Below the pieces are notes generated by a model. That model searched no databases. It had not been told where the DNA came from and was given only the letters and a program-made list of their open reading frames with translations. DNA of 64,000 nucleotides from an uncultured Treponema sp. (lineage in GTDB: Bacteria; Spirochaetota; Spirochaetia; Treponematales; Treponemataceae): positions 34,145 through 98,144 of the forward strand of contig CAMWWZ010000001.1 of the NCBI GenBank assembly GCA_947178095.1. Direction: 5' to 3'. A program made the position numbers and the translations under genes. Of this stretch, positions 4,495-14,742 are shown piece by piece (positions within the stretch are counted from its first letter, which is position 1; every line of letters begins with the position of its first letter).

Positions 4495-6507
4495 CTAGCT
4501 TTTTCTCTGTCTTCGTATGTACGACACCGAAAGGCTTATGGTTTTTTCCACTTCCATTCCGGCGGGAAGATCCAAATCCCAAATGAACGCGCTCACAAAC
4601 GTGCGCGACTCGTTTTGCACGATGTCTCCTTCCATATTGCGCCTGCGGAACGCCACGGGAAAATATGTCACGCCCGCCTCCTCGTTTGGCGCGAACACGA
4701 ACGAAACATTCGAATTGGTGTCCGTAATCTGCGATGCGCTCACTTTTTGAATTACGCCGCCTTCAACGTTCGCATGGCACGGAACGTCCGACTTTCCGCT
4801 CATTATTTCGCCGGCGGAAACAAGCTCAATATTGTAAGGCTTGTAGTCGCTTCCGAGCAAATTGAGTTCCGCGAGATTCGTCTCCACGGCGAACTTCGCC
4901 TTTACCGCGACAGGACCTTCGTTTTTCAAAATGTATTGAAGCTGGATGCCGCTTGATTTTACGACATACTTTTTTCTCAACAAAATCGGCTGGTCAAGCG
5001 TGGAAAAGCGCGTCCTCGTCTCGAGCAGGATTTCCTGCTTTTGGCTCGAAAAAGAAATTTCCTTGTAAATGTTCGCGGAAAAAAGCCCGTTCCGGCATGG
5101 CTCGCCCTTGCAATACTTTGCCGCCTCGTCCTCTTCGAAAATATGATCGACGAAAATTCCGCGAAAATAATTGTCGTCGATTCCGTCGAATTTTTTTATG
5201 CGGCTGAAATTGTCGGCATAGTTGCCGCCCGCCTTCATCACGTCAAGCTCGAAAATCGTTCCGCCCGATGGCGTTATGCAGACATTGTATTTTTCGAGAT
5301 GGCAGATATATTCCTTGAAGCCGTCGCCATTGTAGTCATAGCTGATGACGGACTCCTTGAAATCGGAGCATTCGCGCACGAGCTTTTCCGCTTCCGTAAG
5401 ATTCTTGTATGCGTTCTGCCGCGCGGCAAATGCCGAAAGCTCGCTCGGAGAACGGCAGATATACGCATCGCCGCTTTGCCCCGCCCAAAGCTTTTCGCGC
5501 GCGGCCTTTTTCCGCATTTTGTCGCCCCGGCATTGGTTGAGCAAAAGGCTCACGTGAATCATCCTGTCATAAAGAAAGCGGCTCGCGCTGTATGTCTGCA
5601 AATAGTCATAGATGTTTGTGGGATAACCGTCGTTCACTTCGACGCTTTCATACGGAGTGAAGCACCAGCGCGCGATGCTTTCGCCTATTCCGGCGTGCAC
5701 ATAGCCTTGTATGAAAGCCTGGCACGATTTTATGCTTGCATGAGGCAGGGAAAAATTCAAGCCTTCGCTTTCCGAAACAAGCGCGAAGAATTCCTTGAAC
5801 CACGCCGAATCCAAAAAAGGCGCGATCGTCGCGTCGTTGAAAGGAATTGCGATAATCCTTTCAGGCGAAGACTCGGAACTTTCTTCCGAAGTCGGCTCAA
5901 GCGAGCGAAGCCTTTCAAATGAATTCAAAACGCGCTCAAAATAATCCTTCGCGCTTTCGCCCTTTTTCACGGCGAATTCATTGTAAACGGGAAGCACGGT
6001 CGTGGTCTTTCCCCTGTCGCTCATTACGACCGGAAGGAAAAGCTGCTTTGAGGGCGGCAAAAGAGAATTTTCCAAAAGCACGTAGTCCATGTTGAAGTCG
6101 TTCAAAACGGAAATCATCGAAGGATCCCAGCTGTCGGCGAAAAGCTTCATTCCGCGCGGCCGCCGCCCGAAATTCTGCCTTATCGAAAGAGAAAGTTTTT
6201 CTATCTGCCCAGAACGGTCGAGCGGAAACAAAATCGGAAAAATCGGATTGTAATAGCCGCCGCCGATTATTTCGATTTGCTTTCTTGAGAGCAATTCTTT
6301 GAGCAATTCAAAGAATTCGGGATTTTGCTTTTTCAGAAATTCAATTTGAATTCCTGTAAAATAAAAAGAAAATTTAAGGCCGGGATTGGCAAACAAAAGC
6401 GCGCCGAGCGGCTTGTAGATTTTCTCGTAAACCGCCTTGTACATCGAGTCGTCATGAAATTGCAGAAAAGTGTCCGAAAAAATCGGACACAAATTCAATT
6501 TGCCCAT
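4495..6507 (-). CDS. GH57 4-alpha-glucanotransferase/alpha-amylase-like protein, probably catalytically degenerate
   Basis: EIIGGGYYNPIFPI (GH57 CSR-2), R.GQI, NFGRRPRG and a C-terminal beta domain; HxHQP and the catalytic Glu/Asp motifs are not recognisable. Confidence 0.75.
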   Translation of the reverse strand: MGKLNLCPIFSDTFLQFHDDSMYKAVYEKIYKPLGALLFANPGLKFSFYFTGIQIEFLKKQNPEFFELLKELLSRKQIEIIGGGYYNPIFPILFPLDRSGQIEKLSLSIRQNFGRRPRGMKLFADSWDPSMISVLNDFNMDYVLLENSLLPPSKQLFLPVVMSDRGKTTTVLPVYNEFAVKKGESAKDYFERVLNSFERLRSLEPTSEESSESSPERIIAIPFNDATIAPFLDSAWFKEFFALVSESEGLNFSLPHASIKSCQAFIQGYVHAGIGESIARWCFTPYESVEVNDGYPTNIYDYLQTYSASRFLYDRMIHVSLLLNQCRGDKMRKKAAREKLWAGQSGDAYICRSPSELSAFAARQNAYKNLTEAEKLVRECSDFKESVISYDYNGDGFKEYICHLEKYNVCITPSGGTIFELDVMKAGGNYADNFSRIKKFDGIDDNYFRGIFVDHIFEEDEAAKYCKGEPCRNGLFSANIYKEISFSSQKQEILLETRTRFSTLDQPILLRKKYVVKSSGIQLQYILKNEGPVAVKAKFAVETNLAELNLLGSDYKPYNIELVSAGEIMSGKSDVPCHANVEGGVIQKVSASQITDTNSNVSFVFAPNEEAGVTYFPVAFRRRNMEGDIVQNESRTFVSAFIWDLDLPAGMEVEKTISLSVSYIRRQRKS

Positions 6508-6531: not shown

Positions 6532-7107
6532 CTATTTAAACATTGTATAACAATATCGCCAAAGTTTAAAGTCCTTTTTTGAAAAAGTTTCAAGAATGCG
6601 CGAGGCGCTTTCGTCGTTCTTATATCGCACGAGCTTCTGCTCTTTCGGGAAAAGCTCGATCAAACCTTTCGGGCAAATTCCAATGCACGAGCCGCATCCG
6701 CAGCAGTTCATGCTGACGCGCGCGACTCCGTTTTCCAAAACGATCGCCTCTTGCGGACAGGATGCCACGCAGTCGCCGAATCCGATGCAATCCCAGTTCG
6801 AATGAGTGAGAGTTCCGTAAGCATGCTCGAAAAGCACGCAGCTTTTTATGCCGTTGTATTCCATGCGGACATCGCGCCCTTCTTTTTCCGGGCGCGGCGC
6901 GGCAAGGACGACCGCCCTTTTTTCCGAAGGCTCGATTTTGTTGTCCACCACGCGCTTTGTAAAATTCAGTTCAAGGGGGGAAAAAATCGGATTGGCGTCT
7001 TCCAAAGCCTGCTTTCTCAAAGTGGGCAAAAGAATGTTCAGGATGAAAAACGCGAAGAGAATAATCACCATGAGAAATATTATCGAAAGAAAAATTTTCA
7101 ATACCAT
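6532..7107 (-). CDS. rnfB: RnfB-like membrane-anchored ferredoxin
   Basis: N-terminal TM helix; YNGIKSC, CIGFGDCVASCP and CCGCGSCIGICP; start after AGGAG. Confidence 0.7.
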   Translation of the reverse strand: MVLKIFLSIIFLMVIILFAFFILNILLPTLRKQALEDANPIFSPLELNFTKRVVDNKIEPSEKRAVVLAAPRPEKEGRDVRMEYNGIKSCVLFEHAYGTLTHSNWDCIGFGDCVASCPQEAIVLENGVARVSMNCCGCGSCIGICPKGLIELFPKEQKLVRYKNDESASRILETFSKKDFKLWRYCYTMFK

Positions 7108-7173
7108 GTTAAATCTCCTAATTAAAAAACGAAATTCTCGAGCAAACAAAAGATCGCAGTTCCGCCAAAATTC

Positions 7174-7737
7174 CTATTTTCCCAAAACCACGTTCAACCA
7201 CGAAATGTCAAGCGAATACAGCGCGAAAATCAAGACCACCATGCACGTGAACGTGCGCAGCCTCTGCTTGAATGCGTCGTTGTTTTTTATCATCGCGTTC
7301 CTTCCATTGAGCGCGCGCAAAATAGGCACCAAGGCATAATACGAAGCGAGAGCCGCGACGCTTGTCATAAGGCATCCAACGATGTCCCTTCCTTCGCCCA
7401 ACGACAATATTATCACGAGGTATGGGAACGCGAAATCCGCGCCGGACTTACTTGCCGTCACTTGGACTATCATCTCAAAGAACACACCCATCGCGACGAA
7501 AATCAGCAACGCCACGAGCGGATACAAGTCCATGATTCCCAAGGGCGAAAGCAAAAAGCGGATTATCAAAAATGTGAGCGCGACGGTCGCGCTTACGCAA
7601 GAAAGCGATTCCATGATGCTGATGGCGAAGTTTTCTTTTGAAAGACTTTTTTCCGCCACTGAAATCATTCCCCCTCCATAGACAAGGACTGCGGACGCGA
7701 ACAAAATGTAAAACAAAAAAGTGTCAATTATCGCCAT
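7174..7737 (-). CDS. rnfA: RnfA-like membrane subunit (divergent)
   Basis: About 190 aa, ~6 TM helices, LLSPLGIMDLYPLV resembles RnfA; position between E-like and B-like genes. Confidence 0.55.
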   Translation of the reverse strand: MAIIDTFLFYILFASAVLVYGGGMISVAEKSLSKENFAISIMESLSCVSATVALTFLIIRFLLSPLGIMDLYPLVALLIFVAMGVFFEMIVQVTASKSGADFAFPYLVIILSLGEGRDIVGCLMTSVAALASYYALVPILRALNGRNAMIKNNDAFKQRLRTFTCMVVLIFALYSLDISWLNVVLGK

Positions 7738-8335
7738 CTTCTTCTCCCGATTTTTCAATGATATTCATCTTGTATTGAACGCACAAAAGTCCCGCCATGC
7801 AGAATATCGTCAAAAGCAGCGAGCCCGGGATCGAAGCGAAAAACGCCAAAAACGAAGTGGAATACGAGTTGAAAAGATACGCTTCCTTGATGCCCCATGG
7901 CGCGGGGAATGAAATCGTCCCGTATCCAAGGATGTCGCGCAGCAAAAAAAACGCGAGCGCGAACGCAGAAAATTTCAGGCTTTGCATGAGAAAATCCAGC
8001 GGCGGCAATGGCTCATTTCCGAACACGTTTCCCAAAAGGAAAACGGAAACGGCGGGCATGTACATTACGAATCCCAAATTCAGCGCGATCACCGGCGAAA
8101 AAAGGATCACGATTTGCCTGTACAAAATTGTCGCGGAAACTATGACCGCGAGCGTCAGAATGTCCTGCAAGTCACCTAAGTCGAACCTTTTCATAAACGA
8201 ATGAAACGCGCTCGCGCTCACGGCGAGCAAGTTCATTTCAACGATTAGAATTATTCCATACGCAAGGCGACCCGGCGCACAGACAAGCAGCGCGAACGAT
8301 GCCGCAGTAAACATAAAATATAAGCTTTTGTTCAT
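7724..8335 (-). CDS. rnfE: RnfE-like membrane subunit (divergent)
   Basis: Multi-TM; FFLLRDILGYGTI matches RnfE ...RELLG.GT, followed by FFASIPGSLL. Confidence 0.65.
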   Translation of the reverse strand: MNKSLYFMFTAASFALLVCAPGRLAYGIILIVEMNLLAVSASAFHSFMKRFDLGDLQDILTLAVIVSATILYRQIVILFSPVIALNLGFVMYMPAVSVFLLGNVFGNEPLPPLDFLMQSLKFSAFALAFFLLRDILGYGTISFPAPWGIKEAYLFNSYSTSFLAFFASIPGSLLLTIFCMAGLLCVQYKMNIIEKSGEEDGDN

Positions 8336-8346
8336 TTTTTCCTCAT

Positions 8347-8488
8347 TTTTGAACGGTGGAAAAAATTGAAATTTTTTTCACCGTTCAAAACGCGATTTTG
8401 CAGCGAAGCGAAAAATCGCAATATATGCGCGAGTTTGCAACGCAAACTCGACATTAAAATCAGCAACGATATTTCAGTTGCTGATTTT
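8347..8488. repeat. Intergenic cassette of four tandem hairpins flanked by a direct repeat
   Basis: Stems at 8347-8390, 8392-8419, 8430-8450 and 8456-8488; CCTCATTTTTGA repeated at 8341-8352 and 8497-8508. Confidence 0.75.
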
Positions 8489-8508
8489 AATTTTTCCCTC
8501 ATTTTTGA

Positions 8509-8985
8509 TCAAAACTTTGAGACGCTTTGCACGGCATCTTCGAAAATCTTTTCCGCGCTCGAAAGCCAAAAGGCCATCTGCCTGTCGGACTTCGATTCGG
8601 CAAATTCGTCCCTCACCGAACTTTTCAAATACGCCATGCCCTCAAAATGCGCGCGTCCATCCTCATAGCTGAACACGGCAGGAAGCGGCCCGTAGTATGT
8701 CGTGACGCGCATGACCAACGCCATTTTTTGCGCCGAAGGAATTTGCCCGTCAACATTGTGCGAAAGCTCGAAGCAAATCGCGTCATTGCTTTTTTTGTCT
8801 ACGGGAATTTTCCTTCCCACAAAATATTCAGGCGCGGGCAGGACATTTTCCACAGCCGCGCGCAATCCGTTTTCCCAACTATTCCTTGCGAGAACAATGA
8901 ACAATGAAAGCAGCAAAAAAAGCGCGCAAATTATGCCCGAAAAAATTCCGCATTGTTCCAAAAGCTTGTTCGACCTAGCGTTCAT
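8509..8985 (-). CDS. Single-TM protein at the rnfG position (RnfG-like, no FMN motif)
   Basis: N-terminal TM helix then a soluble domain; lies between D-like and E-like genes; no [S/T]GAT motif. Confidence 0.45.
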   Translation of the reverse strand: MNARSNKLLEQCGIFSGIICALFLLLSLFIVLARNSWENGLRAAVENVLPAPEYFVGRKIPVDKKSNDAICFELSHNVDGQIPSAQKMALVMRVTTYYGPLPAVFSYEDGRAHFEGMAYLKSSVRDEFAESKSDRQMAFWLSSAEKIFEDAVQSVSKF

Positions 8986-10030
8986 CGATTTTCTCCTGCG
9001 CCAAAATGGACGCGACTTTTTTCTTCGCGTGACGGCTTTCGTAAACTTGGATCATCGGAGTGAGCAAGTTCAAGAACAGAATCGTCATCACCGAACCGAT
9101 CGGGGAAGTTCCTGTTCCGCAGAAAACAAACGCGACGATTCCGCCGCACGCGGCATAAATCAGCCTTCCTTGCTTTGTGTACGGAACAGTGCCGTCCCAC
9201 TGCAAAAGGAAGAACGCCGCAAAAAGCGTGCCGCTTGAAAGCAGAGCCAAAAGCAAGTCGCCGGAAAGCGGAACGCCTCCAGTCATCAAAGGCGAAAGGA
9301 ATTTCACGGAAAGCGAATAAACCAAAAGGTACACGAACGGAATCATTCCATCTTCCAAGTCAAGCGCGAGCAAAATCACGGACGAAAGCAATGTCAAAGC
9401 GTTGAACCTGAACGCCGGAATCTGCGAAAGGTTGTCCCAAAAGAACGAAACATATCCTTCCGGAATCGAGACGCCAAAAATCCCGAAAACAGAATCATTG
9501 AAAAACGCCGTGAGTTTTTCGTCCACAGGATTCGGCGCGAAAGAATTCTGTATAAAATTGAGCGAGGGATTTTTCAAAAGCAAGTCGTCGCCGAAAACCT
9601 CGAATCCCGGAAAATTGAAATGCCCGATGAACCATGCCGCGGCAACGGTAAAAACCACGGGATTCACCCAAGACACGCCCTGTCCGCCGAAAAACAAATT
9701 CACCGAAGCCATGAAAATCAGAGTTATGAAAAACGCGGCGATCGGAGGATATGACGCGGGCAGAAAAAATCCTATCAGCGTTCCTGCCAAAATCGAATGA
9801 ACTATCGAAAAGAAAAGTTTTTCCCTTTTCAAGAAATTCCACATTCTTGAGCACAACGCGCCCGCGACCGCGCATACGATTATCGCGATCGAAGAATAAC
9901 TCCTCGTCGCGAAAAGCAAAATTATCTGCGGCAAAAGCGCGAGCAGAAAACACAGCATGCGGAGCGTCGGCGACTTGGTGAATGTCGTGTGCGGTCCAAT
10001 CGAAACACGTTTATAAAATTCTTTGCTCAT
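8975..10030 (-). CDS. rnfD: RnfD-like membrane subunit (divergent)
   Basis: SIGPH..., FFGGQGVSWVNPV (RnfD FGG.G.N..NP), GTLFAAFFL, TVPYTKQGRLIYA, SVMTILFLNLLTPMI. Confidence 0.8.
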   Translation of the reverse strand: MSKEFYKRVSIGPHTTFTKSPTLRMLCFLLALLPQIILLFATRSYSSIAIIVCAVAGALCSRMWNFLKREKLFFSIVHSILAGTLIGFFLPASYPPIAAFFITLIFMASVNLFFGGQGVSWVNPVVFTVAAAWFIGHFNFPGFEVFGDDLLLKNPSLNFIQNSFAPNPVDEKLTAFFNDSVFGIFGVSIPEGYVSFFWDNLSQIPAFRFNALTLLSSVILLALDLEDGMIPFVYLLVYSLSVKFLSPLMTGGVPLSGDLLLALLSSGTLFAAFFLLQWDGTVPYTKQGRLIYAACGGIVAFVFCGTGTSPIGSVMTILFLNLLTPMIQVYESRHAKKKVASILAQEKIDER

Positions 10031-11363
10031 TTTGTCTTTCCTTTAAAATTTTGACGCTTTGGAAAATCGGCAATTTTGTCGGGCAAACCAAATTGCAAAG
10101 TCCGCATTCCGTGCAAAGCGCGCACGCCCGAACAAAATCTTCCGGCACTTCCACGAAATCCACAAGATGCCTGTAAAGCAAGTCAGGGTAAATCTGCGCC
10201 GGGCATGCGTCATGGCATTTTCCGCAGCCCGTGCAATACGCTTCCGAATAGTCAGCGATGTCGCGCTTTGAGATGAAAGCGACCGACTTGACATATTTCG
10301 TTACGGGCGTGTCGAGCGACGGAACTGAAAATCCGTTCATGTGCCCGTTCACGATAATCTTTCCGATGTTTGTTTTGGCGATTCCCAATTCCCGCGCGAG
10401 TTCGCCGAAGCTCGTTCCGACGCAGATTTTCAAAACCGCGCTGGATTTCAAGCAGTCGCCCGAAACGTTCACGTTGACGCGCATGGCGGGAATGTTGTGG
10501 ACGACGGCATCGTGCAGGCTCACCAAAGTCTGGCTGTCCACGAAAAGCGCCGTTGCGCAAATTTTCCGCACGCTTTCGGAAAGCCTCATATTTTTTTTGT
10601 AGCGGGACGCTATGTCGTGCTTCGTGCCGCACGGGAATTTTTTTTCGTTCATCGAGACAAATTGGATTTCATCCAATTTGCGCGAAATCTTGTTTTCGCC
10701 ATTTTCAATTTTCGATTTGAGTTCGGAAAGCTTTTTCACCACGTCCAAATGCGACTTCGCATATGCGAACACGATTTCGCTCGGAGAAAGCATTTCATAC
10801 AGAATCTTCGCAGCGACGAGTATTTTGCCGAATTCCGCGCAAGCCAAAACGCTGTCCGTCTGGCACGACAAATCTTCGTCATAAAGCCGAATGAAAATCC
10901 TTGGCTTCGGCGATTTTTCGAGAGCGCGGATGCTCGCCGCAAGCGACTTTCCTTCGCGCAGAGAAAAAGTGTTTACTACGCCGTGCGCGTTGAGCCTGTT
11001 CAAAAGCGAAGTCGCGCCCCACTCGTTCCATGCAAAGTCGTGCGGAATCTTTCCGATGTGCGAAAATTTCCCGGAAAGAGAAATGTGCAAGGCATCGCCG
11101 CTTTTTCCGTTCGGATAAGTGCATTTTTTTACGCCCTGCACGATTCCTGGTATCGGCGAATGGATTTTCGCCGCGTCAGGATTTTCGTCCTCTTTGCATT
11201 CCGCGATCACCTGCCCTTCCGAAACGCGGACACCCGGCTGGACAAGGCTTTCGCAAAAGACATTTTTTTCCTGACAAAGCGGAACCAAAACGCTTTTTGG
11301 CAAAAAGCCGAAAGTTATATTCTTTATGATGTCTTTTTGCTTCAATACATACTCGGAAAGCAT
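10011..11363 (-). CDS. rnfC: RnfC-like subunit with two 4Fe-4S motifs
   Basis: N-terminal barrel-sandwich (VQPGVRVSEGQVIA...IHSPIPGIV), SLBB region, CTGCGKCHDACP and CTECGLCNLVCP. Confidence 0.8.
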   Translation of the reverse strand: MLSEYVLKQKDIIKNITFGFLPKSVLVPLCQEKNVFCESLVQPGVRVSEGQVIAECKEDENPDAAKIHSPIPGIVQGVKKCTYPNGKSGDALHISLSGKFSHIGKIPHDFAWNEWGATSLLNRLNAHGVVNTFSLREGKSLAASIRALEKSPKPRIFIRLYDEDLSCQTDSVLACAEFGKILVAAKILYEMLSPSEIVFAYAKSHLDVVKKLSELKSKIENGENKISRKLDEIQFVSMNEKKFPCGTKHDIASRYKKNMRLSESVRKICATALFVDSQTLVSLHDAVVHNIPAMRVNVNVSGDCLKSSAVLKICVGTSFGELARELGIAKTNIGKIIVNGHMNGFSVPSLDTPVTKYVKSVAFISKRDIADYSEAYCTGCGKCHDACPAQIYPDLLYRHLVDFVEVPEDFVRACALCTECGLCNLVCPTKLPIFQSVKILKERQNEQRIL

Positions 11364-12757
11364 TTTCGTCTATTTCTCCAAACAAAAATATAATACAAAG
11401 CCACTCCCAACGGCAAAAACATCGCAAGCAAAAGCACAGGCACGACCGCCTTTCCGCTTTCGCCCACCCTTTCCCCGACAGCATATTCCGTGGAGAATTT
11501 TTCACCTTGCTCAATCCACAATTTTTCAATCGCGGGATAATCCGCATTTTTTATCGAGTCGAGCGCGTCCTTCCTGAACGCATCGTCATAAACACAGACG
11601 ACTTGTTCGCTCGCAGTTATTTCGCCGCCATTCTTTGAATAGCGCGTCCGCCTTACAGTCTCGCCTTCCACAGGGTAGACGATGCTCGCGCTTTCCTTGT
11701 TGAGCGAGCGGTATTGCAGCGAAATCGCGTTCCACTTTTTCGCGAAAAAATCGTCCAAAGAAGCGAACGCGCCGTGCGTTCCATTATACTCCGCAGGGGC
11801 AGGAAAATACAAGTCTTTCTCAGGATTCGCAATGGAAAAATTCACGCCAGTCAAAAACAAAATCAAAAGCGCGAACGCCGAGCAAGAACACACGAGCATG
11901 TTTTTCACGGAATTCAGATTCATCCTGCCGACCATCTTCGCGTTTCGCAAGGGAACTGGAACGAAATGAAAGCGCGCATCATAACTTTCCTGCAAATTCA
12001 GCACAAGGTAAAGAGTCGAAATGGCGACGAAGAAATTCAGCGAAAAAAGAATTCCGCATATGAAGCCCGCCGCGCAGGACGACAAAATCGCCGCGAAAGA
12101 AAAAATCCAAATGCAATAATTCTTAATCAAGAATTCGCCATAGCCGCGCCGCCGCCAAACTTTCTGCGCGAGATAAAGCGCATAGAACTCAAGTCCTGCC
12201 GCCGCCGAAACCGCAAAAAGCGGATTGCAAAAACAAAACACGACAGGAAAAATGCCGCCCGCCAAAAACACAATTTTGTTTTCCGAAATGAAAAAGAAAA
12301 ACAAAAACACCGCCAGCGCAACAAGCGGCGCGACCAAAGAAAGCTTTCCCGCGCCGGCAAGGAGCGCGCCCACTCCGTAATTTTGGTTTAAAAGCGAAAC
12401 GGCCTTTTGCGCCTGAACCTTGTACTCGTCCGGAATGTAGTAGAGCCGCGCGCGCTTGTCCTTGTCGAAAAAATAAAGCGACTTTCCCTGATTATAATTG
12501 TCGTCGAAATCCATGAAAAACAATTCGCCGAAAAAAGAATCGTCGTCATCGCGCTGCGCTTCCAACGAAATCACTTCGCCGCATCCGCTTTCCAAAAGAG
12601 CATTTTCGACAATGCGCGCATCCGAATCAAACGGCACGCTCAAGACGGCATAGCCCTTCCAAAGCCTGTAAGCGGGAGAAGTTTTCAGCAAGACGAAAAG
12701 CGCCACCACGAAAATCGCGGCAAAAGCAGGCGCGATGTACTTTTTCAGCAATTCCAT
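11342..12757 (-). CDS. Hypothetical multi-pass membrane protein
   Basis: 471-aa ORF overlapping the rnfC start, with several hydrophobic segments and two soluble domains. Confidence 0.7.
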   Translation of the reverse strand: MELLKKYIAPAFAAIFVVALFVLLKTSPAYRLWKGYAVLSVPFDSDARIVENALLESGCGEVISLEAQRDDDDSFFGELFFMDFDDNYNQGKSLYFFDKDKRARLYYIPDEYKVQAQKAVSLLNQNYGVGALLAGAGKLSLVAPLVALAVFLFFFFISENKIVFLAGGIFPVVFCFCNPLFAVSAAAGLEFYALYLAQKVWRRRGYGEFLIKNYCIWIFSFAAILSSCAAGFICGILFSLNFFVAISTLYLVLNLQESYDARFHFVPVPLRNAKMVGRMNLNSVKNMLVCSCSAFALLILFLTGVNFSIANPEKDLYFPAPAEYNGTHGAFASLDDFFAKKWNAISLQYRSLNKESASIVYPVEGETVRRTRYSKNGGEITASEQVVCVYDDAFRKDALDSIKNADYPAIEKLWIEQGEKFSTEYAVGERVGESGKAVVPVLLLAMFLPLGVALYYIFVWRNRRKCFPSMY

Positions 12758-12760
12758 AAT

Positions 12761-13240
12761 TTACAAGAGCGCGAACCCCAATCCTATGAAAAAACCCAAG
12801 ATCGCACCGAAAACGACTTCGCTCGGACGATGCCCCATAATTTCCTTAATCGGCTTGTAGCTTATTATATTCCTTTCCTGCAACTCGCTTCCAAGCTCAT
12901 TGAGCTTTTTCGCCTGCATGCCGCTCGCCCGCCTCACTCCGAGCGCGTCGCGAATCGTAACCATCAAAAAGCAAAACGAAAGAATAAACACGTCGCTCGA
13001 AAGTCCCGAGCGGAACGCGACGCATGTCGTAAGGGTCGTGACCAAAGCCGTGTGGCTCGAAGGAAATCCTCCAGTCCTCCACAAAAGAAATTCGAACAGA
13101 ATTTTCAGGCTGTGAATTTTTCCCGAAAAAAGATTTATAATCGTCTTCAAGAATTGTGCGCAAAACCAGCTGAAAACGCACGCCTGAAAAACAGAATTAG
13201 AGAAAAGTTCTATTATGCCCAATTTTAGCATATAAAGCAT
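12761..13240 (-). CDS. Divergent PAP2 family (DUF212) membrane protein
   Basis: GGFPSSHTA, DALGVRRASG.QA..LN, GHRPSEVVFG. The upstream extension in the ORF track runs through a repeat, so the start is placed at 13240. Confidence 0.88.
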   Translation of the reverse strand: MLYMLKLGIIELFSNSVFQACVFSWFCAQFLKTIINLFSGKIHSLKILFEFLLWRTGGFPSSHTALVTTLTTCVAFRSGLSSDVFILSFCFLMVTIRDALGVRRASGMQAKKLNELGSELQERNIISYKPIKEIMGHRPSEVVFGAILGFFIGLGFALL

Positions 13241-13312
13241 TATTTCTATTTTACTCACTATGAAAGTTTTGTCTAGTAGCAACAAGTTCTTTTTTCCATT
13301 AAAATCAAAAAA

Positions 13313-13432
13313 GTTGATTCGTGCGGAGGGTTTCATACCCCGACGCTTGCGTCGTAATAAAGGGGATGAAACCCGACTGCGATACCTTATGAGAACAACA
13401 TACCTCGATGCTTGCGTCGAGGTATGTTGATT
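13313..13432. repeat. Palindromic dispersed repeat, copy A (REP/PATE-like)
   Basis: GTTGATTCGTGCGGAGGGTTTCATACCCCGACGCTTGCGTCG...CAACATACCTCGA-tgcttgcg-TCGAGGTATGTTG; related copies at 43728 and 62117. Confidence 0.75.
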
Positions 13433-13447
13433 TTTTGCGAGGCTTTC

Positions 13448-14392
13448 TTGGACTGGAAAAAATTTTATCTTCAAGAAGACGATTCCCAGCGAAGGGCGGA
13501 CCGCGTTCTAAAGCGGCTTTTGCCCCACAAAACGCAGGGACAAATTTATTCCGCGCTCCGAAAAGGGCTCGTAAAGCTGAACTCGCAAAAAATTCCGCCG
13601 AGCCACATCACGCAAAAAGGCGACGAACTTTCCGTGGCGGCGTTCCTGCTTGAAGGCGAAAGCCACGAAAAAACGCCGCGCGAAATCCCGCCTCGCGCCG
13701 ACTCGCGAAATTCCGCAGTGGAAAATCCGCCACGAAAAAATTTCATCGAAGAAATCATGGTCTTTAAAAACGAGCACATCGTTTTTTTGAACAAGCCTTG
13801 CGGAATAAGCGTCCACGGAAAGGATTCGCTTGAAGAACTCTTTTCGAAATCGGCTCAAAAAAGCGCGAGCTCAATTTCATTCAGGCAAGGTCCTCTCCAC
13901 CGCCTCGACAAAAACACGAGCGGTCTAATCGCGTTTTCGGCATCCCTTTCGGGCGCGAAATGGTTTTCGGAAAAAATGAAAAACCACGAAATAAAAAAAT
14001 CCTATATTGGAATCGCCGAGGGAAATATCGCGCAAGAACAAATTTGGCGCGAAAAAATCGAAGGAAAGGACGCCCACACAATCGCGCGCCCGCTCGCGCA
14101 CGGCAATTTCTGCGGCGTTGAATTGACTTTGGTCGAATACAAGATTCTCACCGGACGAAAGCATCAAATAAGGGCGCACGGCACGGCGCACGGACATCCG
14201 CTTTTTGGCGACGAAAAATACGGCGGCAAAGAACATCGCGGACAATATTTTTTACATGCCTACAAAATGGAATTTCCTGCGAACGAACTTTCTTTGCCAG
14301 ATTTTTTGAAAGTCGCGCTTCCAAAAAATTTTTCGGAGTTTCTTAAAACATATTTTAAAAACGCACTTGACATTTTCGCGCCTTTTCTTTAA
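13448..14392 (+). CDS. RluA family pseudouridine synthase
   Basis: S4-like N-terminus (RADRVLKR), LHRLDKNTSG, TGRKHQIR, HPLFGDEKYG, FLHA; probable TTG start at 13448. Confidence 0.93.
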   Translation: MDWKKFYLQEDDSQRRADRVLKRLLPHKTQGQIYSALRKGLVKLNSQKIPPSHITQKGDELSVAAFLLEGESHEKTPREIPPRADSRNSAVENPPRKNFIEEIMVFKNEHIVFLNKPCGISVHGKDSLEELFSKSAQKSASSISFRQGPLHRLDKNTSGLIAFSASLSGAKWFSEKMKNHEIKKSYIGIAEGNIAQEQIWREKIEGKDAHTIARPLAHGNFCGVELTLVEYKILTGRKHQIRAHGTAHGHPLFGDEKYGGKEHRGQYFLHAYKMEFPANELSLPDFLKVALPKNFSEFLKTYFKNALDIFAPFL

Positions 14393-14395
14393 AAT
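14367..14395 (+). promoter_or_regulatory. Sigma70-type promoter for the 57-aa zinc-ribbon gene
   Basis: TTGACA(14367-72)-17 bp-TAAAAT(14390-95). Confidence 0.65.
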
Positions 14396-14410
14396 AGTTT
14401 AACCAATGAA

Positions 14411-14533
14411 AACCTCTAAAAACTTCAGTTTTTAGAGGTAACTTTGAAAATGCGATGTTTTAAGTCGCGCTATTATAGCGACTTAAAACTCGTCGGCACA
14501 TTCGAAAAAATTGCCGAAAGCAAGTTTTTCGAA
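14411..14533. repeat. Triple-hairpin REP-like cassette
   Basis: ACCTCTAAAAAC-ttca-GTTTTTAGAGGT; GTTTTAAGTCGC-n9-GCGACTTAAAAC; TTCGAAAAAATTGC-cgaaa-GCAAGTTTTTCGAA. Confidence 0.75.
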
Positions 14534-14568
14534 GCGCCTTAAATTAGCATTGCTTTTGGAGGAATAAA

Positions 14569-14742
14569 ATGGCTGGAGCAAGTAAAAACTCGCGCACCAC
14601 TGTCGCCACACAGAAATTCATGTGCCCCGATTGCGGCGGCGAAATCGTAATGAAGACAATTTTGCAGGCGGGTCGCCTCAAGAACATCGCGGAATGCAAC
14701 AAGTGCAAGCGCACAGAACGCAGGCCGAAAGATTTCAAATAA
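14569..14742 (+). CDS. Small basic zinc-ribbon protein, 57 aa (absent from ORF track)
   Basis: Translated by hand: MAGASKNSRTTVATQKFMCPDCGGEIVMKTILQAGRLKNIAECNKCKRTERRPKDFK*; GGAGGA RBS upstream; CxxC...CxxC. Confidence 0.8.
   Translation: MAGASKNSRTTVATQKFMCPDCGGEIVMKTILQAGRLKNIAECNKCKRTERRPKDFK

Follow-up and report, generated by a model that had tools for sequence, protein, structure and literature searches.

The canonical Rnf complex is a ferredoxin:NAD+ redox pump in which electrons pass from RnfB through the RnfA/RnfE pair, RnfG and RnfD to RnfC and finally to NAD+, and the cofactors of this relay are required in both Rnf and Nqr, the four of the membrane core being strictly conserved (2025 review, PMC12174285). 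The closest described relative of the system treated here is the tp0153-tp0147 locus of Treponema pallidum, called noncanonical Rnf (Rnf_Tp), in which no subunit carries a flavinylation motif (Deka et al., 2015; PMC4436053). Beyond C, D and perhaps E, no Rnf subunit could be identified there, and the seven genes tp0147-tp0153, including the one for a glycoside hydrolase family 57 (GH57) protein, were reported to be cotranscribed, with the data not shown (PMC4436053). In the T. pallidum model, a flavin-based Rnf is the centrepiece of the ion gradient and of extra ATP formation (PMC4436053, PMC7512555), and later papers of the same group keep Rnf_Tp as a flavin-based pump in the energy model (PMC7512555). 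Here we describe an rnf-like operon in a 64,000-nucleotide stretch of DNA from an uncultured Treponema sp. (contig CAMWWZ010000001.1, positions 34,145 to 98,144; hereafter the window, in which all positions below are counted unless another locus is named). The operon occupies positions 6532-13240 on the minus strand. In this gut/rumen Treponema it is almost certainly the orthologue of tp0153-tp0147, and its product is most likely a membrane complex derived from Rnf in which transmembrane electron transfer has ceased.

With the canonical complexes of known structure (7ZC6, 8AHX/8RB8, 9ERI) the locus has in common the gene order, the subunits C, D, E and A, the ferredoxin part of B and the two [4Fe-4S] clusters of RnfC. 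In contrast to them, it lacks the flavin mononucleotide (FMN)/NADH site of RnfC, the threonines that carry covalent FMN in RnfD and RnfG, the four cysteines of the A/E pair and the N-terminal iron-sulfur (Fe-S) cluster of RnfB (domain PF04060), and the only relay sites strictly kept are the two cytoplasmic [4Fe-4S] clusters of RnfC. The D-like subunit additionally carries a conserved insert, and a DUF212 protein, a membrane protein of 471 amino acids (M471) and the GH57-like protein are extra partners. In Na+-NQR the A/E-type [2Fe-2S] cluster, riboflavin and the two covalent FMNs are retained, and NqrF serves as the entry module. The operon shows the reverse pattern, the Fe-S clusters of the C-like subunit being kept and the sites of the membrane core lost, and it contains no NqrF-like gene. 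NqrA, which is homologous to RnfC, has been stripped of its redox cofactors (PMC12174285) and sets a precedent for such a loss within the subunit family.

A sequence-only reading of the window had described all six Rnf positions in canonical order, with overlapping or closely spaced junctions and with the DUF212 gene and the 471-residue protein ahead of them, and the coordinates agree: the gene order C-D-G-E-A-B equals that of canonical rnfCDGEAB. The proteins are called C2, D2, G2, E2, A2 and B2 below, and their genes all lie on the minus strand. Statements about motifs were checked family-wide, in 21 congeners and 13 syntenic loci from other genera and families. The orthologous operon was taken from 21 same-genus species and the canonical rnf operon from 19 relatives, family profiles were compared by hhalign, and the canonical paralogues of the same genome (C1, D1, G1, E1, A1 and B1) served as the positive control for site losses.

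The C-like subunit (C2; 10011-11363; 450 amino acids) matches canonical C at 100% probability in hhalign and retains the RnfC_N domain, scoring 139.8 bits against the rnfC model TIGR01945 (cut-off 246). Its two [4Fe-4S] motifs, CTGCGKCHDAC at residue 377 (C377..C387) and CTECGLCNLVC at residue 417 (C417..C427), both of the form CxxCxxCxxxC, do not vary in any of the 35 sequences compared, which come from five families and include that of T. pallidum. The segments GMGGASFP and NAAECEP of canonical C correspond to GVVNTF and RLYDEDL in C2, with RLFDEDP as the family consensus for the latter, and Complex1_51K scores 13.3 bits in C2 (cut-off 31.2) as against 150.4 bits in C1. The absence of the FMN/NADH motifs (GxGGAxFP, ECEP), which the sequence-only reading had noticed in the window, thus extends to all 35 syntenic C sequences.

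The D-like subunit (D2; 8975-10030; 351 amino acids) scores 112.7 bits against PF03116 and 53.6 bits against the rnfD model TIGR01946 (cut-off 207), matches the RnfD chains 9eri_D and 7zc6_D in the PDB, and aligns with canonical RnfD at 99.8% probability in hhalign. In the family-level alignment the flavinylated threonine of D1 (DAV-STAT) falls on a proline of D2 (..KNPS..), in line with the earlier claim that D2 has no flavinylation motif, and the covalent-FMN motif S[GST]AT is absent in the window's genus (g1), in family f4 and in T. pallidum. D2 also carries a lineage-specific conserved insert, FNDSVFGIFGVSIPEGYVSFFWD..IPAFRFN, whose pattern D..IT..LN...F..G..P.GY is common to every syntenic copy and absent from the canonical copies. 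The gene is intact and free of internal stops in 37/37 genomes of the genus.

The E-like (E2; 7724-8335; 203 amino acids) and A-like (A2; 7174-7758; 194 amino acids, an alternative start possibly being the Met at 7737) subunits are far more elusive to single-sequence methods. Neither they nor any family member scanned at E<=1 matched a Pfam or NCBIfam model; pairwise BLASTP gave nothing between A2 and A1 and E=0.007 between E2 and E1, and phmmer against PDB sequences gave nothing for E2 and a weak match of A2 to RnfA (7zc6_A, E=0.49). Profile comparison by hhalign was specific: E2 aligned with canonical RnfE at 92.3% probability (E=5.5e-7, 162 columns) and not with RnfA, and A2 with canonical RnfA at 78.3% (E=1.8e-5, 127 columns) and not with RnfE. 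A broader E profile (alignment A4) reached canonical RnfE/NqrD loci of several genomes at about 1e-12, the same loci being found by PF02508, and the E2 motif RDxxGxGT corresponds to canonical RExxGxG. In family f3, the A and E proteins encoded at the syntenic position match canonical and noncanonical hidden Markov models (HMMs) alike, and the A copy provides a transitive link, with 8.6e-17 to the A1 HMM and 2.5e-9 to the A2 HMM. Because of the hhalign specificity, the reach of the A4 profile and the family f3 copies that match both sets of HMMs, E2 and A2 are judged, on this profile evidence, to be true and very divergent homologues of RnfE and RnfA.

No cysteine is conserved across the orthologues of E2 or A2, and the canonical LGLC and VNC/TNC positions hold other residues; A2 has a conserved membrane glutamate. 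For RnfA, the family alignment bears out the earlier claim that both the GxCP and the TNC cysteines are gone. The single candidate cysteine noted earlier for RnfE, that of LLVCAP, is indeed present in the window, but it is not conserved among orthologues. The T. pallidum proteins TP0148 and TP0149 (locus L164, 3787-4365 and 4359-4952) are cysteine-rich, with 10 and 8 cysteines, respectively; a rebuilt cluster in these proteins was considered and rejected, as none of the cysteines lies at a canonical position or is common to the congener locus L166. Two E2 orthologues, L039:3539-4498 and L041:3602-4453, both from loci without B2, bear acidic low-complexity C-terminal tails of 80-115 amino acids; the other orthologues have about 205 residues, and the remaining congeners without B are also without such tails.

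The protein in the G position (G2; 8509-8985; 158 amino acids) consists of one N-terminal transmembrane helix and a small periplasmic domain of beta-sheet and helix. No Pfam or NCBIfam match, PF04205 included, was found for it or for any family member scanned at E<=1, hhalign gave 0.4% probability against RnfG and hence no profile similarity, and BLASTP against G1 returned only short, chance-like matches. The motif [ST]GA[TS] occurs in none of 34 G-position proteins, so that the lack of TGAT reported from the window alone is a property of the whole set. When the AlphaFold2 (AF2) model of G2 (predicted local distance difference test score, pLDDT, 86.7) was searched with Foldseek against 350,542 PDB chains, the best match was RnfG itself (8rb8_G, Azotobacter vinelandii), weak at E=0.08 and a TM-score of 0.29; no chain matched at E<=0.001, and the hit is a lead only. 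The G2 profile run against 1.84 billion representative sequences returned a closed family of 343 members with no bridge to RnfG. G2 is a replacement of RnfG by position, and it may descend from RnfG.

The B-like subunit (B2; 6532-7149; 205 amino acids) is truncated to a transmembrane helix and a single 2x[4Fe-4S] ferredoxin domain. It scores 76.6 bits against NF005503 (cut-off 252) and 34.2 bits against TIGR01944 (cut-off 68.7), and its hhalign match to RnfB, at 99.5% probability, covers residues 77-184 only. The N-terminal Fe-S domain PF04060, which scores 46 bits in B1, has no match in B2, as expected from the missing CGxCG cluster pointed out before. The claim that the ferredoxin clusters were kept holds for the C-like subunit, where the motifs are found in 35/35 sequences, and fails in part for B: the first ferredoxin-type motif has 3/4 cysteines in the window's subclade, and B2 is absent in 7/21 congeners, in T. 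pallidum and at two further loci of the family (g21 and a second g24 locus). B2 is eroding in the window's subclade and dispensable in the lineage.

A canonical rnfCDGEAB operon, with STAT in D and SGAT in G, lies on contig C25 of the same genome, and an ApbE flavin transferase is encoded on contig C2, so that two of the elements for which the sequence-only reading had suggested a genome search are present. The C, D, E, A and B paralogues of C25 pass the curated NCBIfam cut-offs, which no window subunit reaches, G, E and A of the window being without any match. The canonical G1 has the motif AISGATITS and an FMN_bind domain at 36.9 bits; it scores 61.5 bits against TIGR01947, below the cut-off of 102, despite this domain and the SGAT motif. 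Its longest open reading frame (ORF; L003 8179-9042, 287 amino acids) overlaps rnfD, and the start is probably the Met of MKNAFLLG, which gives about 192 amino acids. Given the canonical operon and ApbE in the genome, the window operon is a second, paralogous system.

The correspondence with T. pallidum is gene by gene. In the 1.14-Mb genome G067 the locus L164 reads DUF212-C-D-G-E-A-GH57, its proteins being named TP_0148, TP_0149, RnfC O83187 and PAP2 O83188 in the source records, and HMMs built from the window's genus recover the same gene order in T. pallidum (C 3.5e-79, D 3.1e-35, E 1.4e-18, A 3.9e-14 and G 1.1e-5). The equivalents are TP0153 for DUF212, TP0152 for C, TP0151 for D, TP0150 for the G position, TP0149 for E, TP0148 for A and TP0147 for GH57. 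Both systems lack the flavinylation motif and both fall in the same RnfC clade; unlike Rnf_Tp, the window operon has M471, a truncated RnfB and a canonical Rnf in the same genome.

The block RluA / DUF212-(M471)-C-D-G-E-A-(B)-GH57-(MetRS) recurs as a syntenic unit in five families of the order, and the D2 motifs also occur in T. saccharophilum, T. parvum and T. zioleckii, with 287 loci in the species-representative collection. The operon is universal in the Treponemataceae sampled, and among the family genomes listed most species also carry a genuine Rnf/Nqr. Canonical A/E-type genes were found in 104/121 family genomes (74/83 of high quality) and not in T. pallidum. Since a noncanonical D is present in every family genome listed and canonical A/E genes in only 104/121, retention marks the noncanonical operon as harder to dispense with than the canonical one, which accompanies it in most species.

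In a maximum-likelihood tree of RnfC the canonical copies form one clade, set off by a long branch (2.19). The copies at syntenic positions cluster according to family, beginning with the window's genus, followed by the genera that include that of T. pallidum and then by f4. Two features are found in all syntenic copies and in no canonical one, namely the loss of the C FMN/NADH motifs and the insert in D. The other losses are distributed as a mosaic: family f3 keeps all four A/E cysteines, f6 keeps 3/4 of them together with the D-subunit threonine, f5 keeps that threonine and no cysteine, and f4 and the window's family have lost all, apart from one genus with a single GLCP cysteine in E. These patterns are best fitted by an old paralogue that was vertically inherited across the order. 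Recent degeneration after a duplication in this genus was rejected, the loss of the C site and the D insert being order-wide. At locus L062 (genome G038, family f3), the sole RnfD match of the genome stands at the syntenic position, and the copy has all four A/E cysteines and a full-length RnfB, but the FMN/NADH motifs of RnfC and the flavinylation motifs of D and G are already gone; this copy may represent an intermediate state.

The operon is under purifying selection. No frameshift or internal stop was found in 21 fully extracted congener operons after trimming, and the ratio of nonsynonymous to synonymous substitution rates (dN/dS) amounts to 0.04-0.135 for the closest pair and to 0.05-0.27 for the second closest, these being the only two close pairs usable, with dS undefined (saturated) for most others and the D2 value missing in the closest pair; C2 alone gives 0.05-0.20. 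New motifs are conserved in D2, C2, E2 and A2. The earlier proposal that the operon is intact and selected rather than pseudogenised is borne out by these data, and simple decay, which the same reading had named as the outcome that would speak against it, is contradicted by the intact ORFs and by dN/dS of 0.04-0.27. The noncanonical proteins do evolve at about four times the rate of their canonical counterparts, with terminal branches of 0.5-1.0 as against 0.15-0.25 and an E/A identity among congeners of about 30-35% as against about 68%.

Because the canonical ligands of the relay from B through A/E, G and D to C and NAD+ are missing, the complex would no longer pass electrons along this path, and from its sequence the window operon is quite probably not a canonical ferredoxin:NAD+ redox pump. 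With the relay broken, it would have to do something that canonical Rnf does not, and we infer a different, non-redundant function. The roles put forward in the sequence-only reading, namely a redox-sensing scaffold, a transporter or a complex that uses a separately encoded flavoprotein, are conjectural. The D, E and A subunits of Rnf and Nqr have transporter-like, alternating-access folds and contain the ion path; because of these folds in the canonical versions, the membrane core of D2, E2 and A2 is proposed as a transport module. It may work as a channel or transporter that conducts ions or solutes, the redox state of the RnfC Fe-S pair may control or energise it, and in most species the RND-like M471 may assist. 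For the treponemal noncanonical Rnf as a whole, TP0148-TP0152 included, the proposal that it has ceased to be a redox pump and acts as a channel or transporter run through the RnfC clusters is tentative and falls somewhat short of an even chance, and the specific redox-gated mechanism just outlined, our best guess but drawn by analogy, is less likely than not.

Several points weigh against the view that electron transfer across the membrane has been abandoned in favour of transport. RnfD also binds riboflavin non-covalently. In the noncanonical complex, flavins or a metal centre could likewise be bound non-covalently or through ligands that are invisible in the sequence, and an archaeal Rnf without the RnfD flavinylation motif is described as functional in work cited in PMC4436053. 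T. pallidum has Rnf_Tp alone and presumably needs an ion-motive source, some form of redox chemistry persists, as the invariant RnfC clusters show, the transporter view leans on analogy and on a weak fold match of M471 (TM-score <=0.28), and the RNA contigs that bear on expression come from a related strain (90-99% identity), with DNA carry-over possible. Together with the strong purifying selection, the universal retention and the syntenic copies elsewhere that keep the D threonine or the A/E cysteines, which point to an ancestor that was probably a working redox complex, several of the same observations also favour the T. pallidum literature model, in which the complex is still a redox-driven ion pump from flavodoxin or ferredoxin to NAD+, with non-covalent or cryptic flavins and unrecognised ligands. 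This model would have to explain three consecutive transmembrane stations free of ligands (the A/E cluster, the G FMN and the D FMN), an NAD(H)/FMN signature of C that is gone order-wide, a ferredoxin-docking subunit B that T. pallidum and a third of the congeners do without, and the canonical Rnf/Nqr that most treponemes carry besides, and we regard it as rather unlikely, also when it is granted that T. pallidum, which has no canonical Rnf/Nqr A/E gene, is proposed to need such a pump.

The neighbouring genes invite another reading, an envelope or glycan/lipid machine in which DUF212, the RND-like M471, the Rnf-like core and GH57 would act together, for example in moving a glycan or lipid-linked substrate through the cytoplasmic membrane or in modifying it, with the Rnf-derived core as the conduit. 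In all families examined the rnf-like genes lie between DUF212 and GH57, which are cotranscribed with them in T. pallidum according to PMC4436053, M471 is translationally coupled to C2, and its best fold matches are RND lipid or drug exporters or SecDF. The same flanks, however, surround the more canonical-looking copies of f3 and f6, so that the synteny may be ancestral, M471 is absent in T. pallidum and f3 and its fold match is weak, and no substrate can be named; such a machine seems improbable. Least probable by far is a decaying relic of a duplicated rnf operon, redundant with the canonical copy: the roughly fourfold faster evolution and the ongoing loss of B would agree with it, but the congener operons are free of disruption at low dN/dS, the new motifs are invariant, the operon is kept in the reduced genome of T. 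pallidum, and it is more universally retained than the canonical one.

The missing flavinylation motif of the T. pallidum system has been known since 2015, when the system was named and left uncharacterised (PMC4436053). Added here are a complete assignment of subunits, evidence that the loss of cofactors also reaches the NADH site and the Fe-S core, the presence of a canonical Rnf in the same genome and a stepwise history across the order. The annotation of TP0148 and TP0149 can be refined to homologues of RnfA and RnfE, respectively, and that of TP0150 to the subunit in the G position; our literature search found no paper on the A/E cluster ligands, on the NADH site or on TP0148 as an RnfA homologue. 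Should the channel or transporter reading be true, T. pallidum would be without an Rnf-type energy-conserving pump, and the flavin Rnf step of its acetogenic model would need replacement, a challenge to the Rnf step in the energy model of the syphilis spirochaete, a pathogen that was uncultivable for decades. The operon can be viewed as a natural experiment on the Rnf scaffold without its electron wire; the question is testable in the cultivable T. denticola, T. parvum and T. saccharophilum, and the mosaic losses in other families can order the loss events.

Among the accessory genes, M471 (11342-12757, minus strand) encodes a polytopic membrane protein. All 21 congener loci have the gene (two were extracted incompletely); it is found throughout most of the family, and f4 and f5 have it in part. 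No Pfam family was found in 20 members. Its AF2 model (pLDDT 81.6) consists of a first transmembrane helix, a periplasmic alpha/beta domain, a transmembrane bundle, a second periplasmic alpha/beta domain and a C-terminal transmembrane helix, and the best Foldseek matches all belong to the RND superfamily (MmpL4 at E=5e-3, NPC1, AcrD, SecDF and AcrB), with TM-scores <=0.28 and none at E<=0.001. M471 thus resembles RND proteins and SecDF in topology and in its best matches, but has about half their size and no sequence-family match; its putative place in the superfamily is a lead from modelling. Its dN/dS is 0.13-0.27.

The DUF212 gene (12761-13240, minus strand) is the first of the conserved block. 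The longest ORF extends to 13474, and the start at 13240 was preferred because the Pfam match (PF02681, 134 bits, residues 91-230 of the long ORF) and the orthologues of about 160 amino acids fit it. In all loci examined, which cover five families, it keeps its place upstream of the rnf-like genes, and its T. pallidum orthologue is recorded as 'divergent PAP2 family protein O83188'. The GH57-like gene (4495-6507, minus strand), the last of the block and followed by metG, matches PF03065 at 75.9 bits (positions 38-181 of the 291-position profile), carries an AmyA-gluTrfs_C domain as well and follows the rnf-like genes in nearly every locus of the five families; it is the orthologue of TP0147. 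Because both genes also flank the more canonical-looking copies of families f3 and f6, the linkage is old and may or may not be functional.

Within the operon, neighbouring genes overlap at M471/C2 (22 nt, the stop of M471 overlapping the start of C2, which couples the two translationally), C2/D2 (20 nt), D2/G2 (11 nt) and E2/A2 (35 nt), and are separated by 3 nt at DUF212/M471, 24 nt at A2/B2 and 173 nt at G2/E2. A promoter-like site, TAGACA-16-TAAAAT (13248-13275, minus strand), lies immediately upstream of the DUF212 start and is a consensus match only: the scan of the region gave 14 consensus sites as against 8.8 +/- 3.2 in shuffles, which does not exceed the shuffles, nor did the terminator scan of the region. 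Metatranscriptome contigs (related strain, 90-99% identity, DNA carry-over possible) span all operon genes at a depth like that of the neighbouring metG, which gives weak support for expression of the operon.

The G2/E2 spacer (8336-8508, minus strand) contains hairpins and varies between strains: one DNA contig of run X1 carries 32 other letters in place of 8349-8493, and the word depth of the spacer is about 10-fold higher than that of its flanks in one RNA run and 3-fold higher in DNA runs, which suggests a dispersed repeat or a mobile element like the repetitive extragenic palindromic (REP) type. Outside the operon, between DUF212 and rluA, the stretches 13284-13717 and 14152-14585 reach contig word depths of 10,504 and 399 in metatranscriptome run X7, where the flanks have about 17, and are likewise raised in DNA runs, to 234-282 and 108-196; numerous alternative joints occur around 13312-13430. 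These observations fit a highly repeated, transcribed palindromic element between the two genes.

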